DNA of 64,000 nt from Prevotella sp. Lineage in GTDB: Bacteria > Bacteroidota > Bacteroidia > Bacteroidales > Bacteroidaceae. Where the stretch lies: the NCBI GenBank assembly GCA_041855685.1, contig JBHAEQ010000035.1, forward strand, positions 63,151-127,150. Reading direction: 5' to 3'. The translations under genes were made by a program, and so were the position numbers. Below, piece by piece: positions 56,087 to 62,990 of this stretch. Each line of letters opens with the position of its first letter. Within the stretch, counting starts at the first letter, position 1. The notes under the pieces were generated by a model, which was not told where the DNA came from, made no database searches, and worked only from the letters and a program-made list of their open reading frames with translations.

Positions 56087-58329
56087 ATGATACCTATTTT
56101 AAATAAACGAGTAAATGCCGTATGCTTAACTCTTTATTTGTTTGTGCTGATAACGTATATCCGGATACACCCCTCATAACCACAACCAAGACAGTTGATG
56201 CATCAGTCGCTCTTGTTAAAACAGAAGACGCAGGAGGCCAGACAACCTATGAACTCCGTCCCAACGGTCAGCCTTCAAGTGTAATGGCACAGGGAGGCGT
56301 ATTGACAACATTCGGGTATGACGAGTTCGGACGCAGGACATCCATAGACGACCCGAGTGCAGGAATAAGGACATATACCGACAATTACAATCCTGACGGG
56401 ACAAGAATCCAGATGGAGACCGATGCGGCAGGAAATACAATTACTACGACAGGCGACATCTACGGCAGGGTGATACGTGTAGAACGTCCTGAGTTTAATA
56501 CAGATTACAGCTATGACCCTGACGGACGTCTGATCTCTGAAATCTCAACGAATGGTGTCAGGCAAATGTATTTCTATGATGAGTTTGACAGATTGCAAGG
56601 CGAGGAGAAGAATGTGGACGATCTGTCGTTTGCGAAGAGTTATACTTATGCCGACAGACTGCTGAAGCGCAAGGACATAGTCACCTATTCATATATGTTC
56701 TCTCCAAGCATGTTCAGTGAGGAATACATATATCAGAACGGTAATATAACACAAATGCCCAATGGTGGCACATTGTCATACGATGATGAAGACAGACCTT
56801 ATCAGGTAACCAGTCTCACACCTCTTGCTGCGTCACCTCCTGCTTCCGACCAGACGGTCAGCTATACGTCCTTCCTGCGTCCTTCTACAATAGCACAGGA
56901 CGGATTGGAATGCAGTTTTGATTATGATGCCGGAGGTGCCAGGGTTAAAATGTCGTTTAGCCTTACAGATTCTGATAGAGGTGACAACATTACATATTAT
57001 TTAGACGAATACGAGTATCACGGTTCTTCTGGCAGGCGCATACTCTATTTGGGAGGCGACGCCTATTCAGCGCCTGCTGTATTGGTAAGAACCTCGATGT
57101 CAACGGGCTGGAGTCTCTATTATATCTGCCGTGATTATCTTGGCAGTATCACCCACGTTGCATACAGCAGTGGTGAATTGAAACAGGAGCTGAGCTATGA
57201 TGCCTGAGGACGCCTGCGTAATCCTGACACCCATGAGATATATGCGCAGGGCGAAGAGCCGGAGTTGTTCCTTAACCGTGGCTATACCGGTCATGAGCAT
57301 TTGCAGCAGTTCGGGCTGATAAACATGAACGCCCGCCTTTACGACCCTGGCCTCGGCAGATTCCTATCTCCCGACCCATACGTACAGATGCCCGACTTCT
57401 CGCAGAGCTTTAACCGCTACTCATACTGCATGAACAACCCACTGAAGTATGTGGATAAGAATGGGGAGTTTCCGTTTCTCATTGCTGGTGGTATTATTAT
57501 TGGTGCTTATTTAGGTGGTACTATGGCTAATAAAGGAGAATTAAATCCTTTAAGCTGGAACTGGAAAGATGCTACTACCTATCTGGGAATCGGTTTTGGC
57601 GCAATTATGGGATATACTGCTTCTTACGGTTTTTAAAATCCAGGAACTATAGGTTATACTTTTGGAATAAACAACTCATGGGGTGCCGCTACATTAACTG
57701 TAGGAGGTACAGGTTTTGGAAGTGAATGGCGCTTTAGTTGGACAACAGTTGCAGATGGTGGCGGTCAAATTACAAATAAAGATTTTTCCAGTAGTACAAT
57801 TAATAGAAAAATAGACCGTTCTATCTCTGATGTAAGAGAGGAATGGGATAATAGTGCATTTGTGTATTCTAATATAGCGGCATCAACTCTTGCATTAAAC
57901 GATGCTACAGTTATAGGTATAGCAGATAATTTTCTTATTCCTATAATTTATGCGACTGCATCAACATATTGGCTTTATTCCAACCAAGAATTAATAGGAA
58001 AAAGAACAAGAGAAATAGCTCATTTAGTACAAAGTAATCTTACGTTGAAGCAAGGATTTACTTATGAACTGCGTCCAAAAACTTCTGGATATTATAGAAA
58101 TGTACACGGTGGAAGTGTTTACTTAACTCCAGATGACATTTGGAAGGATGGAGAAACAACACGAGGTTTGAATAGATATAATAATAACTCTTATGAAAAT
58201 ACATACATGATTATGTACCCTATATATTATGGAAATCAAATGGAAATTAAAATCAAGGAAAAAATTATGATTTATGGATATTATTTTAAGCATAATCATC
58301 TACCACCAGGAAATAAAATATTTAGATAA
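56087..58329 (+). pseudogene. Decayed Rhs polymorphic toxin with URI (GIY-YIG-like) nuclease-type C-terminus
   Basis: YD repeats, RGYTGHEHL, NARLYDPGLGRFLSPDP, NNPLKYVDKNG; ORFs 56122, 57265 and 57862 share one frame broken by TGA 57205 (SYDA*GR) and TAA 57634; signal-like start at 56087 is out of frame. Confidence 0.88.
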
Positions 58330-60223: not shown

Positions 60224-60256
60224 GAGGAGGCACTTCAAAATGTGAAGTACCTCCTC
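60224..60256. terminator. Hairpin between the island remnant and the TonB receptor 3' end
   Basis: GAGGAGGCACTTCA-aaatg-TGAAGTACCTCCTC. Confidence 0.75.
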
Positions 60257-60344: not shown

Positions 60345-62693
60345 TTAGAATGTAACTCTTGTGCCGAGTGTCATGGTTCTTGGTGCTCCCCAGTATCCTC
60401 TGAATGAGTCAAGGTCGTGAGTGGAACCGTCGGTTCCACGCTCTATATATGAAGCATCAAGCAGGTTGTTGCATGTTGCGAATATGTTTATGCGTACATT
60501 GTCTGATACAGAGCCTTCCCAGCCGAATGTAGCATTAATAAGGTCATAAGCTGGTAATCGGTAGGCATCTTGAGCATCGGCTTTGGTGCGCGTTGATGGT
60601 TCAAAGTCGGCATACATGCGGGCATTGTGTTGCCAATCCAAATGAATGTATATTCCTTTGTACAAGCGGGCATCAGCTTGTGCGCCGAATTGTGTCTGTG
60701 GTGCATCTCCTACATGGAGTCCGTTGCTGTGAATAGAATATTCCTTGAGAGTTTCGCCGCTATATGAGTCGTAAATGATTGCATCGCCATTGCTTTTCCA
60801 TTTCCACGATGCTATCATGGCGTATGCTTTCAGCTTTAGCCAGCTTGCAGCTTGCTGGTAGGCAGAAATTTCTATTCCCTTGTGAAGGGCGTTGAGTCCT
60901 GTTATCTGGTATTTTTCCGTCGCTTCGTTGGCACGCTTTGCAAGGCTTACGGTAAGAGTCTTGTCTTTCCAAGAGGCAATATAGACTGAGGCTTCAAGTC
61001 CGCCGTCGTTCCATGATGTTCGTAGTCCTATTTCGCCGAGTATGTTCTTTTCGTTGGTGACATCTTTGGTTATTGACAGGTTGCTTGATGAGAGATATAC
61101 ACTGGCATAAGGCAGTCGGCTGCTGTAACCTGCATTGGCAAACACATCAACAGAAGGTGTTGAGGGCGTTGTTTGCATCAGGTGATAGAGAATGCCAGCT
61201 TTTATGCTTCCTCCCCAGCCGTGTGCCCATGCACTCTTTTTGCCTGTTATGTCGTTATGTCGTCGATAGTTTCCGTTGAACACTGCTGCTCCCAATGTGG
61301 TGCTTAAACTGCGGTTATTGTATTTTGCTTGTATGAATGCCGATGTGTGGTGGGTAGTTCTTCCATATCGGGCACCGGTGTAGTCACCTATTCCCACATT
61401 CTTCTTCGTAGTGCTGTCATACCAGTAGTCGCCACCGAGAAGGTCGAGAACTTTCATCTTTGACCATGTGTCGTAGTATTGATATTGCATTCCTACGGAG
61501 AGAGTTGCCTCGTTGGTGAGTTTGTAATCTCCCGAAACAATAGCTCCTGCCTGTGTATGTCCTGATAGATAGTCTATCAGTATGTTGTTTGACGCATTGC
61601 CTTCAGCAGTGGCGTTATTGCTGTTCTCCTCTATTACAGAGTTGAAGTCAATATGCCCATCGGCTGTTTGGTGGGCTATTATGCTCTTTTTGCCATATTG
61701 TCCGTATGTAGATCTGCCTCCTCCGTTGGCAATAGCCATGTAGATGGAGTTTTTCATTGAGAAGCGGCTGCCGTCGAGCAGATGCTGCAATGTGAAATAA
61801 GGTTTGTGATAATGATTGCGTGCTATGGAGTATTTGCTGCCGTAAAGATAGCCCCAGTTCTTGGAATATCCGCGTCCGAATCTGCTTATCTCGTCGGCAC
61901 TAAGCTCTGTATTGCGTTGGTCGTGCTCTTCGGGTGAGCCCAAAGCTGTGAATACTAAAGTGTTGGCGGCATTGAGCTGTTTGCTTGCAGAGAGCATGTA
62001 GGAAAATGTTTCTACGTCTGACACCTCTACGAACCCTTTGCCTTGTGTATATGAGAGCATGAGGTCAACATTCCAGTTGTCAGGTAGTTTGCCAGAAGAA
62101 AAGTTTAGCACTCCTTTGGTAAGTCCGTATTCTGTAGTTGTCAATCCGAATGAGCCGTTGGGATTTTCTCTGCCGGTCTTGGTTATTATGTTTACAAGTC
62201 CGCCCATTGATGTGTCGGCAAGCATTGAACCTCCTATGCCTTTCTGAATCTGTACGGCATAAGTTGCATCTGCCAATCCCATCCAGTTGCTCCAATACAT
62301 TGAGCCTGATGTGAGTCCTTGAATAGGAATGCCGTTAAGCATTATGGCAATGTTGTCCTGTTTGAAACCTCTCATGTTGAGCGAGGCATCGCCATAGCTT
62401 CCTGTTGTCGAGGTGGCATAGACTCCGGGTACGCCTTGCATCATCTCCACATAGTTGGGAGCAGCGGCATGCAGCCTGATATCACGTGGAGTGATAGTGG
62501 TCAGGGTGAGCGGTGTCACCTCTTCTTTACTAAAGTTTACACGAACCGATACCTCCTGAAGAGTAATAGGTGTATCGTTTGATAGAGAAACATGTACGGC
62601 ATCGTTTGTGCCGTCTTTCTTGCCTGTGCCCTCGGCACCTGCAAGTTGTGTGGACATAATCATGCCCAGCAAAACAACAAACTTTTTCATCAT
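60345..62693 (-). CDS. TonB-dependent receptor, non-SusC; candidate riboflavin/flavin transporter
   Basis: Signal peptide, plug GSYGDASLNMRGFKQDNIAIMLNGIP...YWSNW, terminal GTRVTF; directly under an FMN riboswitch. Confidence 0.9.
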   Translation of the reverse strand: MMKKFVVLLGMIMSTQLAGAEGTGKKDGTNDAVHVSLSNDTPITLQEVSVRVNFSKEEVTPLTLTTITPRDIRLHAAAPNYVEMMQGVPGVYATSTTGSYGDASLNMRGFKQDNIAIMLNGIPIQGLTSGSMYWSNWMGLADATYAVQIQKGIGGSMLADTSMGGLVNIITKTGRENPNGSFGLTTTEYGLTKGVLNFSSGKLPDNWNVDLMLSYTQGKGFVEVSDVETFSYMLSASKQLNAANTLVFTALGSPEEHDQRNTELSADEISRFGRGYSKNWGYLYGSKYSIARNHYHKPYFTLQHLLDGSRFSMKNSIYMAIANGGGRSTYGQYGKKSIIAHQTADGHIDFNSVIEENSNNATAEGNASNNILIDYLSGHTQAGAIVSGDYKLTNEATLSVGMQYQYYDTWSKMKVLDLLGGDYWYDSTTKKNVGIGDYTGARYGRTTHHTSAFIQAKYNNRSLSTTLGAAVFNGNYRRHNDITGKKSAWAHGWGGSIKAGILYHLMQTTPSTPSVDVFANAGYSSRLPYASVYLSSSNLSITKDVTNEKNILGEIGLRTSWNDGGLEASVYIASWKDKTLTVSLAKRANEATEKYQITGLNALHKGIEISAYQQAASWLKLKAYAMIASWKWKSNGDAIIYDSYSGETLKEYSIHSNGLHVGDAPQTQFGAQADARLYKGIYIHLDWQHNARMYADFEPSTRTKADAQDAYRLPAYDLINATFGWEGSVSDNVRINIFATCNNLLDASYIERGTDGSTHDLDSFRGYWGAPRTMTLGTRVTF

Positions 62694-62694
62694 T

Positions 62695-62803
62695 TTCTTC
62701 TTTCATCCAGACTTTAACTGTCGGTACCGTAGTTGCAACGGTTCGGCCTTATGGCTTGCGGACTATACCGCCGATCGGGAATTGCACCCTGCCCTGAAGA
62801 GTT
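62695..62803 (-). ncRNA. FMN riboswitch (RFN element)
   Basis: Minus strand UCUUCAGGGCAGGGUGCAAUUCCCGAUCGGCGGUAUAGUCCGC...CCGACAGUUAAAGUCUGGAUGAAAGAAGA matches the RFN consensus; P1 UCUUC/GAAGA. Confidence 0.96.
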
Positions 62804-62822
62804 AATATATAAAATTCGACTG

Positions 62823-62990
62823 CAAAGTTACGCTTTATTTGTAAGAAACACAAGTTATATGTAGATAAAAGTACTGTAATTATGTTGAAATCCTGCGTTG
62901 TATCATTAATTCGTATGTGGAAAAGGTTAATCAAAACAAAGGAAAAGCAGGTAATCGCTTTGCTGTTGTCAGAAAGTTTTGTTATCTTTG
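62823..62990. promoter_or_regulatory. Divergent promoters: minus TAACTTTG (62830-62823) for riboswitch-TBDT, plus TATCTTTG (62983-62990) for the M6 protease
   Basis: Exact -7 consensus boxes at the expected distances. Confidence 0.72.

Follow-up and report, generated by a model that had tools for sequence, protein, structure and literature searches.

On a 64,000-nucleotide stretch of DNA from Prevotella sp. (contig JBHAEQ010000035.1 of assembly GCA_041855685.1), called the window below, a flavin mononucleotide (FMN) riboswitch precedes the gene of a 782-aa TonB-dependent transporter (TBDT). The analysis of this pair points, with a probability of roughly 80%, to a single-gene unit in which the transporter brings flavin (riboflavin, possibly FMN or flavin adenine dinucleotide, FAD) into the periplasm and the riboswitch acts as an off-switch when flavin is plentiful. 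Because the pairing of riboswitch and transporter is conserved, riboflavin synthesis (rib) genes are missing from the genome of the window, and RibB is absent from 33 genomes that carry close homologues, the riboswitch-linked family as a whole is very probably, as judged from sequence, the outer-membrane gate for flavin uptake. An importer of riboflavin or FMN had been proposed in an earlier sequence-only reading of the same DNA, and this proposal was supported, the cargo being deduced from regulation, operon partners and the anti-correlation with RibB. We infer what the substrate is, that control is translational and that uptake depends on TonB. What the analysis adds is the complete RibB anti-correlation, the finding of rib-operon genes and phosphoesterases as partners, and the structure of the clade.

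The riboswitch and the transporter of the window

Analysis of the window with cmscan showed RF00050 as the sole Rfam match in the 64 kb, at 62805..62691 on the minus strand. The score was 102.6 bits (gathering score 66.2; E 1e-22), and the match ran end to end over model positions 1-138 and was not truncated. The covariance model thus placed a complete six-helix junction, the FMN riboswitch aptamer (RFN element), at 62691..62805 on the minus strand, and this was the only RF00050 match in the 2.63-Mb genome. In the cmscan alignment the conserved nucleotides of the junction agreed with the consensus at nearly all conserved positions, and the one deviating pair, in P5, had U-A in place of G-C, a change on both sides. 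The P1 helix was formed by the 5' strand UCUUC at 62796..62800 (minus strand, from the alignment) and the 3' strand GAAGA at 62696..62700 (minus strand, from the alignment and the sequence). The minimum free energy (MFE) fold of the leader recovered P1-P6, and the stability of the whole-leader fold was equal to that of shuffles (z 0.0).

The gene of the transporter, designated P0001, occupied positions 60345..62693 on the minus strand, and its product was assigned as a candidate flavin importer from the open reading frame (ORF), Pfam, AlphaFold2 (AF2) and Foldseek. The only Pfam domain found was the Plug domain (PF07715) at residues 60-165 (E 1.3e-10; 42.2 bits, cut-off 23.9), and the beta-barrel was predicted at about residues 170-782. 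The N-terminus, MMKKFVVLLGMIMSTQLAGA, carried a Sec-type signal peptide at about residues 1-20, recognised by eye from the translation, and the protein ended in GTRVTF with a terminal Phe. A candidate TonB box, TLQEVSVRV, was located from the sequence at residues 44-52, with Q46 invariant and L45 and E47 at least 90% conserved among 41 homologues; the AF2 model placed short strands there. The barrel was modelled at a pLDDT of 80-94 and the whole protein at a pTM of 0.75, with 41 homologues as input.

Foldseek of the AF2 model gave 358 matches in the Protein Data Bank (PDB) at E<=0.001, of which the best 50 were all TonB-dependent transporters. PqqU was the top match (E 9.7e-34), followed by FhuA, YncD, FecA and FoxA; the top matches spanned E 1e-34 to 1e-29, at 13-15% identity. 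PF00593, which was recorded for many homologues, did not reach E 0.001 in P0001. Weak TonB-receptor matches were obtained with NCBIfam, with no SusC/RagA match among the NCBIfam models and no CarboxypepD_reg domain in Pfam. Across Pfam and NCBIfam only Plug and TonB-receptor models were matched and no known riboflavin transporter family, and phmmer of P0001 against the PDB sequences matched no solved structure. With Plug as the only Pfam domain, no SusC/RagA match and a predicted structure that falls among TBDTs, P0001 is a divergent non-SusC TonB-dependent transporter. Both elements named in the sequence-only reading, a clear RFN aptamer and a 782-aa non-SusC TonB receptor, were therefore recovered by the model searches, the aptamer as a full-length, canonical RF00050 match.

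Conservation of the pairing and riboflavin synthesis genes

Hundreds of homologues, 48-86% identical, came up in a protein search; their source records were Bacteroidales, Muribaculaceae and Bacteroidaceae, and the most specific name that any of them bore was "TonB-dependent receptor". Close homologue loci (33) were taken from species-representative genomes of Prevotella, Palleniella muris, P. intestinalis, Hoylesella loescheii and Sodaliphilus and from metagenome-assembled genomes (MAGs) of Bacteroidaceae and Muribaculaceae. The aptamer was found with nhmmer directly upstream and on the same strand in 32 of the 33, the one locus without it being L024. When 10 of the close loci were rechecked with the Rfam covariance model, 9 scored above the gathering score (77.7-105 bits), and the tenth was cut by a contig end.

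In an order-wide sample of 301 Bacteroidales genomes, RF00050 was present in 62 genomes with 64 matches. About 25 of the 64 riboswitches had a homologue of the window's transporter in the downstream unit. The other 39 stood before operons of the ribD-ribE-ribBA-ribH type (30), before ribB or ribBA alone (6) or before other genes (3). The regulon survey by Sun et al. (PMC3766115) reports that Bacteroidaceae had no FMN regulon. The expectation of the sequence-only reading that homologues would carry the same riboswitch was thus confirmed in the close loci, in the covariance recheck and in the wider sample.

The maximum-likelihood tree placed the riboswitch-linked transporters in one clade (SH-aLRT 98) of 56 rows, with 52 linked and 4 unlinked members, and the window's protein fell inside it in a subclade of 29 rows (SH-aLRT 100), all of them riboswitch-linked. 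The nearest paralogues formed a separate clade of 15 members, in which a lipoprotein-like ORF of about 380-460 aa usually came next, and no Rfam riboswitch was found before them in the 20 loci scanned. With the transporter of L063 as query, the window's protein was the unique best match in its own genome (3e-94; next 4e-15). Members of the window's gut and rumen clade are about 780 aa long and are without the N-terminal CarboxypepD_reg-like domain of the deeper riboswitch-linked members, which are about 860 aa long (window compared with L047-L070). The clade has a long branch, on which Prevotellaceae, Muribaculaceae and Bacteroidaceae are intermingled, a pattern suggestive of horizontal spread.

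Two observations were made on single members of the family. The transporter gene was split into two frames in the riboswitch-linked loci L007 (5986-8370), L029 (5986-8243) and L069 (1769-5610, on the reverse complement of the stored sequence), and these are either frameshifted pseudogenes or assembly errors. In L002 (JAMPFD010000001.1), a MAG titled "Bacillota bacterium", the transporter, with its aptamer, grouped with Palleniella at a path length of about 0.14 changes per column, and this bin probably carries a wrong label or is contaminated.

The assembly to which the window belongs was 2.63 Mb in size, 93% complete and without contamination. RibH and RibF (a 309-aa frame) were present by hidden Markov model (HMM) search, and the RibH was 41% identical to that of L063 in tblastn. 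RibB and RibE were absent by HMM, and tblastn with the L063 Rib proteins gave no match for RibBA or RibE. RibD was likewise absent by both kinds of search, with weak deaminase-domain HMM matches only. A ribD pseudogene was considered on contig C49, where a weak TIGR00326 match contained a stop codon, and was rejected, the frame being an intact 145-aa TadA-like deaminase with unrelated neighbours. Since rib genes are scattered in these genomes, the loss of three of them to the 7% gap in the assembly is improbable. With ribBA, ribD and ribE missing and RibF kept, the bacterium depends on imported flavin at the riboflavin stage or beyond; the absence of RibE together with the presence of RibF places the imported compound at riboflavin or a later form.

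Of 26 relatives, 23 had RibB, among them every one of the 15 genomes sampled from the same genus; it was found in none of the 33 genomes with close transporter homologues, which span several genera and families. The riboswitch-transporter pair was found in none of the 15 same-genus genomes, and 14 of them had no FMN riboswitch. The sequence-only reading had pointed to loss of the pathway as a check on its proposal, and the absence of ribBA, ribD and ribE here, together with the RibB counts, bears it out.

The fifteenth same-genus genome, G012, had its FMN riboswitch before an Erm-like rRNA adenine methyltransferase gene (L111 409-1209; PF00398, 2.6e-61); a 224-aa RibB-like gene lay 2 kb past it, so that the methyltransferase gene looks like an insertion between riboswitch and ribB. 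In the window's own genome the ribH was an intact 154-aa orphan (C24:23936-24346; L045 3934-4398, minus) beside a TPR-like gene and recF, and it is either a relic or a sign of a second role of the protein.

Bacteroidetes are usually treated as riboflavin producers. The RibB-less gut and rumen Prevotellaceae, Muribaculaceae and Bacteroidaceae, which include cultured Palleniella and Hoylesella strains, are relevant to vitamin cross-feeding models, to defined media for Prevotella-like organisms and to the sources of riboflavin-derived ligands of MAIT (mucosal-associated invariant T) cells.

Cargo of the transporter and known systems

In two deeper relatives, L063 and L084, the transporter followed ribD-ribE-ribBA-ribH in one riboswitch-controlled unit; the rib genes of L063 were confirmed by Pfam, and those of L084 were assigned by blastp to the L063 proteins. 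In 7 riboswitch-linked loci a type I nucleotide pyrophosphatase/phosphodiesterase with a signal sequence (PF01663, E 1.9e-91) came after the transporter; it was directly next in some of them and elsewhere stood after a second, Oar-like transporter or a tandem paralogue. Two riboswitch-less members of the clade had such neighbours too, a PF01663 enzyme after one and a PhoD-like phosphatase after the other. Outside the cytoplasm, FAD could be turned by these kinds of enzyme into FMN and then into riboflavin. No conserved partner 3' of the transporter was found in the 33 close loci, and no FMN riboswitch stood before a PnuC-family gene in the 301 genomes.

Because these secreted phosphoesterases are co-located with the transporter in deeper relatives, the cargo may be FMN or FAD and not free riboflavin. 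Taken further, this gives a tentative alternative, in which flavin nucleotides (FAD and/or FMN) are the cargo and periplasmic or surface phosphoesterases trim them to riboflavin for an inner-membrane carrier. It draws on the enzymes just described and on the size of the compounds, since FAD and FMN (456-785 Da) are too large or charged for porins and a TonB gate would be more sensible for them than for riboflavin. On the other hand, no PF01663 enzyme lies beside the gene in the window or in the 33 close loci, tblastn found no homologue of it in the window's own genome, and the close clade has lost the N-terminal CarboxypepD_reg domain of the deeper clade, so that specificity may have shifted.

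A wider scenario is put forward with similar reserve. The family would be the first of outer-membrane flavin transporters, its natural cargo would be FAD or FMN from neighbouring cells or the host, trimmed by secreted pyrophosphatases and phosphatases, and it would have been acquired in gut and rumen Bacteroidales along with the loss of riboflavin synthesis. Horizontal transfer would be the probable route of acquisition, given that Prevotellaceae, Muribaculaceae and Bacteroidaceae are interleaved in the gene tree. If this is true, the gene is a one-gene marker of riboflavin-auxotrophic Bacteroidales, and such auxotrophs are unable to produce the intermediates of the riboflavin pathway by which MAIT cells are activated.

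It is improbable that the cargo is no flavin at all but iron, a siderophore or another metal chelate, with co-regulation through a metabolic link between flavin and iron. Siderophore or metal transporters make up most of the solved structural neighbours, and an iron-riboflavin regulatory axis exists in Proteobacteria. Structural similarity among TBDTs is, however, silent on substrate, and the top match, PqqU, carries an organic redox cofactor, while the vitamin itself is favoured by the RibB anti-correlation, by co-transcription with rib operons and by the partnership with nucleotide pyrophosphatases. Slighter still is the chance that the transporter takes up a flavin-related compound other than the vitamin, namely the intermediate dimethylribityllumazine, the breakdown product lumichrome or an antimetabolite. 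The retained, intact orphan ribH (lumazine synthase) would suit such a cargo, but RibE is absent by HMM and tblastn, so that no intermediate could be converted to riboflavin; RibH is moreover left without a supply of substrate, RibB and RibD being missing, and what an auxotroph with RibF requires is riboflavin or a later form. Least probable of all is a relic aptamer, or a variant of altered ligand specificity, that leaves the gene outside FMN control. Rare FMN-riboswitch variants with changed specificity do exist, but the score here is far above the gathering threshold, the junction consensus is intact, the P5 pair is changed on both sides, and dozens of species, at 48-86% protein identity, have retained the aptamer.

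Several points weigh against the proposed flavin importer itself. Riboflavin (376 Da) passes general porins in other Gram-negative bacteria and is thus small enough that a dedicated gate would not be strictly required. No inner-membrane carrier was found as a conserved neighbour in the 33 close loci, and the only lead for one, unsupported so far, is the second of two PnuC-family genes in the window's own genome, of 264 aa (C33:27707-28318; L044 3693-4487, minus), which stands beside an L-fucose permease gene and has no riboswitch. To these are added the missing PF01663 homologue in the same genome and the plug region of the AF2 model, which was poorly predicted (pLDDT below 50). The comparison of RibB with carrier status gave a Fisher's exact p of ~2e-12 on genome counts that are not phylogenetically independent, and the tally of the 33 carriers was made with RibB (PF00926) as the single marker, genome completeness being unreported.

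Set beside known systems, the flavin importer proposed here resembles BtuB under its adenosylcobalamin riboswitch (in E. coli and at multiple loci of gut Bacteroides), where a TBDT for a vitamin is likewise preceded by a leader riboswitch that senses the coenzyme form. Ample cofactor makes the BtuB riboswitch repress the transporter. The two systems differ in riboswitch class, in cargo and in the lineage of the transporter, and phmmer links P0001 to no solved structure. Bacteroides BtuB is described as working with the surface lipoprotein BtuG, whereas close homologues of the flavin transporter have no conserved partner following them.

A likeness within Bacteroidales is the thiamine system, in which OMthi (BT2390) and PnuT are reportedly under a thiamine pyrophosphate (TPP) riboswitch in Bacteroides thetaiotaomicron; here too a non-SusC TBDT for a small vitamin stands under the cognate riboswitch. 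The window's own genome holds such a unit on contig C53 (L043 509-3565), made up of a TPP riboswitch (64.5 bits), a 766-aa TBDT and then a 194-aa PnuC-family carrier, so that the parallel with TPP- and B12-riboswitch TonB systems, first drawn from the sequence, has for TPP an example within the same organism. In the thiamine operon the inner-membrane carrier is part of the unit, whereas the flavin transporter stands alone. Paralogy of P0001 with this thiamine transporter was considered and rejected, the similarity being at the level of the plug only (26% over 145 residues).

The best structural match, PqqU/YncD (PDB 9c4o and 6v81; E 9.7e-34, TM 0.63/0.74), is a TBDT for the small aromatic redox cofactor PQQ and sets a precedent for entry of such a compound by a TonB-dependent route. 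It is proteobacterial and only 13-14% identical in sequence, and the match shows a shared fold and nothing more specific; we know of no riboswitch on PqqU/YncD. A SusC/RagA-type transporter of a polysaccharide utilization locus was not indicated, as there was neither a SusC/RagA match nor a CarboxypepD_reg domain, the downstream gene was convergent and no conserved partner was found in the 33 loci.

Riboswitch-controlled TonB transporters are established for vitamin B12 and thiamine, and an outer-membrane route for vitamin B2 is undescribed for any bacterium in the literature searched. Known riboflavin importers (RibU ECF, PnuX/RibM, RibN, ImpX, RfnT, RibZ, RibV, RibXY and RfuABCD) are in several cases under FMN riboswitches and serve flavin salvage, and some of them compensate for a lost rib pathway (PMC4418817, PMC3766115, PMC6593275). 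They differ in being systems of the cytoplasmic membrane or of periplasmic binding proteins, and none is an outer-membrane beta-barrel. Two riboflavin-transporter surveys (PMC4418817, PMC6593275) and the regulon survey (PMC3766115) contained no outer-membrane component for riboflavin; the terms "TonB" and "outer membrane" were missing from two of the three, and the third had a lone "outer membrane" in a cited title on vitamin B12. No outer-membrane or TonB-dependent flavin transporter was found elsewhere in the literature searched, and two recent reviews list none, in agreement with the sequence-only reading, which knew of none that had been biochemically characterised. A large family annotated only as "TonB-dependent receptor" gains, from genomic evidence, a specific and testable substrate class.

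Other transporters and membrane proteins were seen under FMN riboswitches. An Oar-like transporter of about 1090 aa (CarboxypepD_reg and OMP_b-brl_4) stood directly after the riboswitch in L092 (455-958), and Oar-like transporters lay between the flavin-clade transporter and the pyrophosphatase in L048, L050, L055 and L057. An Oar-like homologue, 31% identical and without a riboswitch, was present on contig C5 of the window's own genome. Membrane proteins with DUF4328, of about 225-240 aa, occurred in the riboswitch units of L079 (1246-1932, after ribB) and L096 (1259-1930 and 2104-2829, in tandem), with coordinates on the reverse complement of the stored sequences, and these may be an undescribed flavin-related membrane protein.

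Expression of the unit and neighbouring features

In the window the P1 3' strand GAAGA is followed by AA and then by the AUG at 62693..62691. This strand therefore ends 2 nt before the start codon, and the aptamer takes in the region upstream of the AUG, about 20 nt 5' of the AUG being formed by the P6 and P1 3' strands. Of 28 parsed close loci, 19 had an ATG that started 3-7 nt past the AGAAG motif in the 3' strand of P1, and in most of these 19 it lay 2-6 nt past the full strand. The remaining 9 had a spacer of 28-206 nt between P1 and ATG, which probably holds a separate expression platform.

With the AUG 2 nt past P1, the aptamer itself would serve as the expression platform. Binding of FMN would lock P1 and bury about 20 nt 5' of the AUG in the aptamer, so that initiation would be blocked; when FMN is scarce, P1 would open, the purine-rich GGAUGAAAGAAGAAAAUG would become free and the transporter would be made. 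Initiation in Bacteroidetes relies on unstructured A-rich leaders and not on Shine-Dalgarno pairing, and direct occlusion of initiation, as suggested by the position of P1, fits this reliance. The translational FMN riboswitches of Fusobacterium nucleatum impX and E. coli ribB belong to the same aptamer class and also act by hiding the initiation region, whereas the window's leader has no separate sequestering helix and no Shine-Dalgarno sequence. A P1 adjacent to the start codon would represent compact riboswitch control in a phylum largely without Shine-Dalgarno-based initiation. An extended P1, in which the MFE fold had the 5' leader base-paired to AUGAUG and the opening codons, was also considered and rejected, its duplex energies being no better than those of shuffles in 18 start-adjacent loci (mean z -0.26; window z -0.87).

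Upstream of the aptamer, a Bacteroidetes-type -7 promoter motif, TAACTTTG, was located at 62823..62830 on the minus strand by sequence and pattern match, 17 nt 5' of the aptamer match, and its function as a promoter is presumed. Matches to this pattern were near chance in the window (83 against 64 expected). The motif TAnnTTTG ended 16-29 nt 5' of the AGGG core of the aptamer in 16 of the 28 parsed loci, the window included. A sigma-70 promoter scan gave fewer matches than shuffles and was uninformative. The sequence-only reading had placed the aptamer between a consensus promoter and the receptor gene; the aptamer and the receptor stood, and the consensus promoter was reduced to this short motif.

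Downstream, a terminator-like hairpin (stem of 14 bp, tail rich in T) was located at 60224..60256 on the minus strand, 88 nt past the stop codon and between convergent genes, and the next gene, beyond the hairpin, was the convergent ORF. The upstream neighbour was a divergent gene for an M6 peptidase (metalloprotease). With the motif upstream, the hairpin and the convergent ORF downstream and a divergent gene on the upstream side, the unit is taken to be monocistronic. No rib gene or inner-membrane carrier was attached to the transporter gene, which is the stand-alone arrangement originally described. Just downstream of the unit, at 56122-57636 of the window, fragments with an RHS repeat and an Rhs-associated core were recorded by Pfam and NCBIfam in consecutive short frames.

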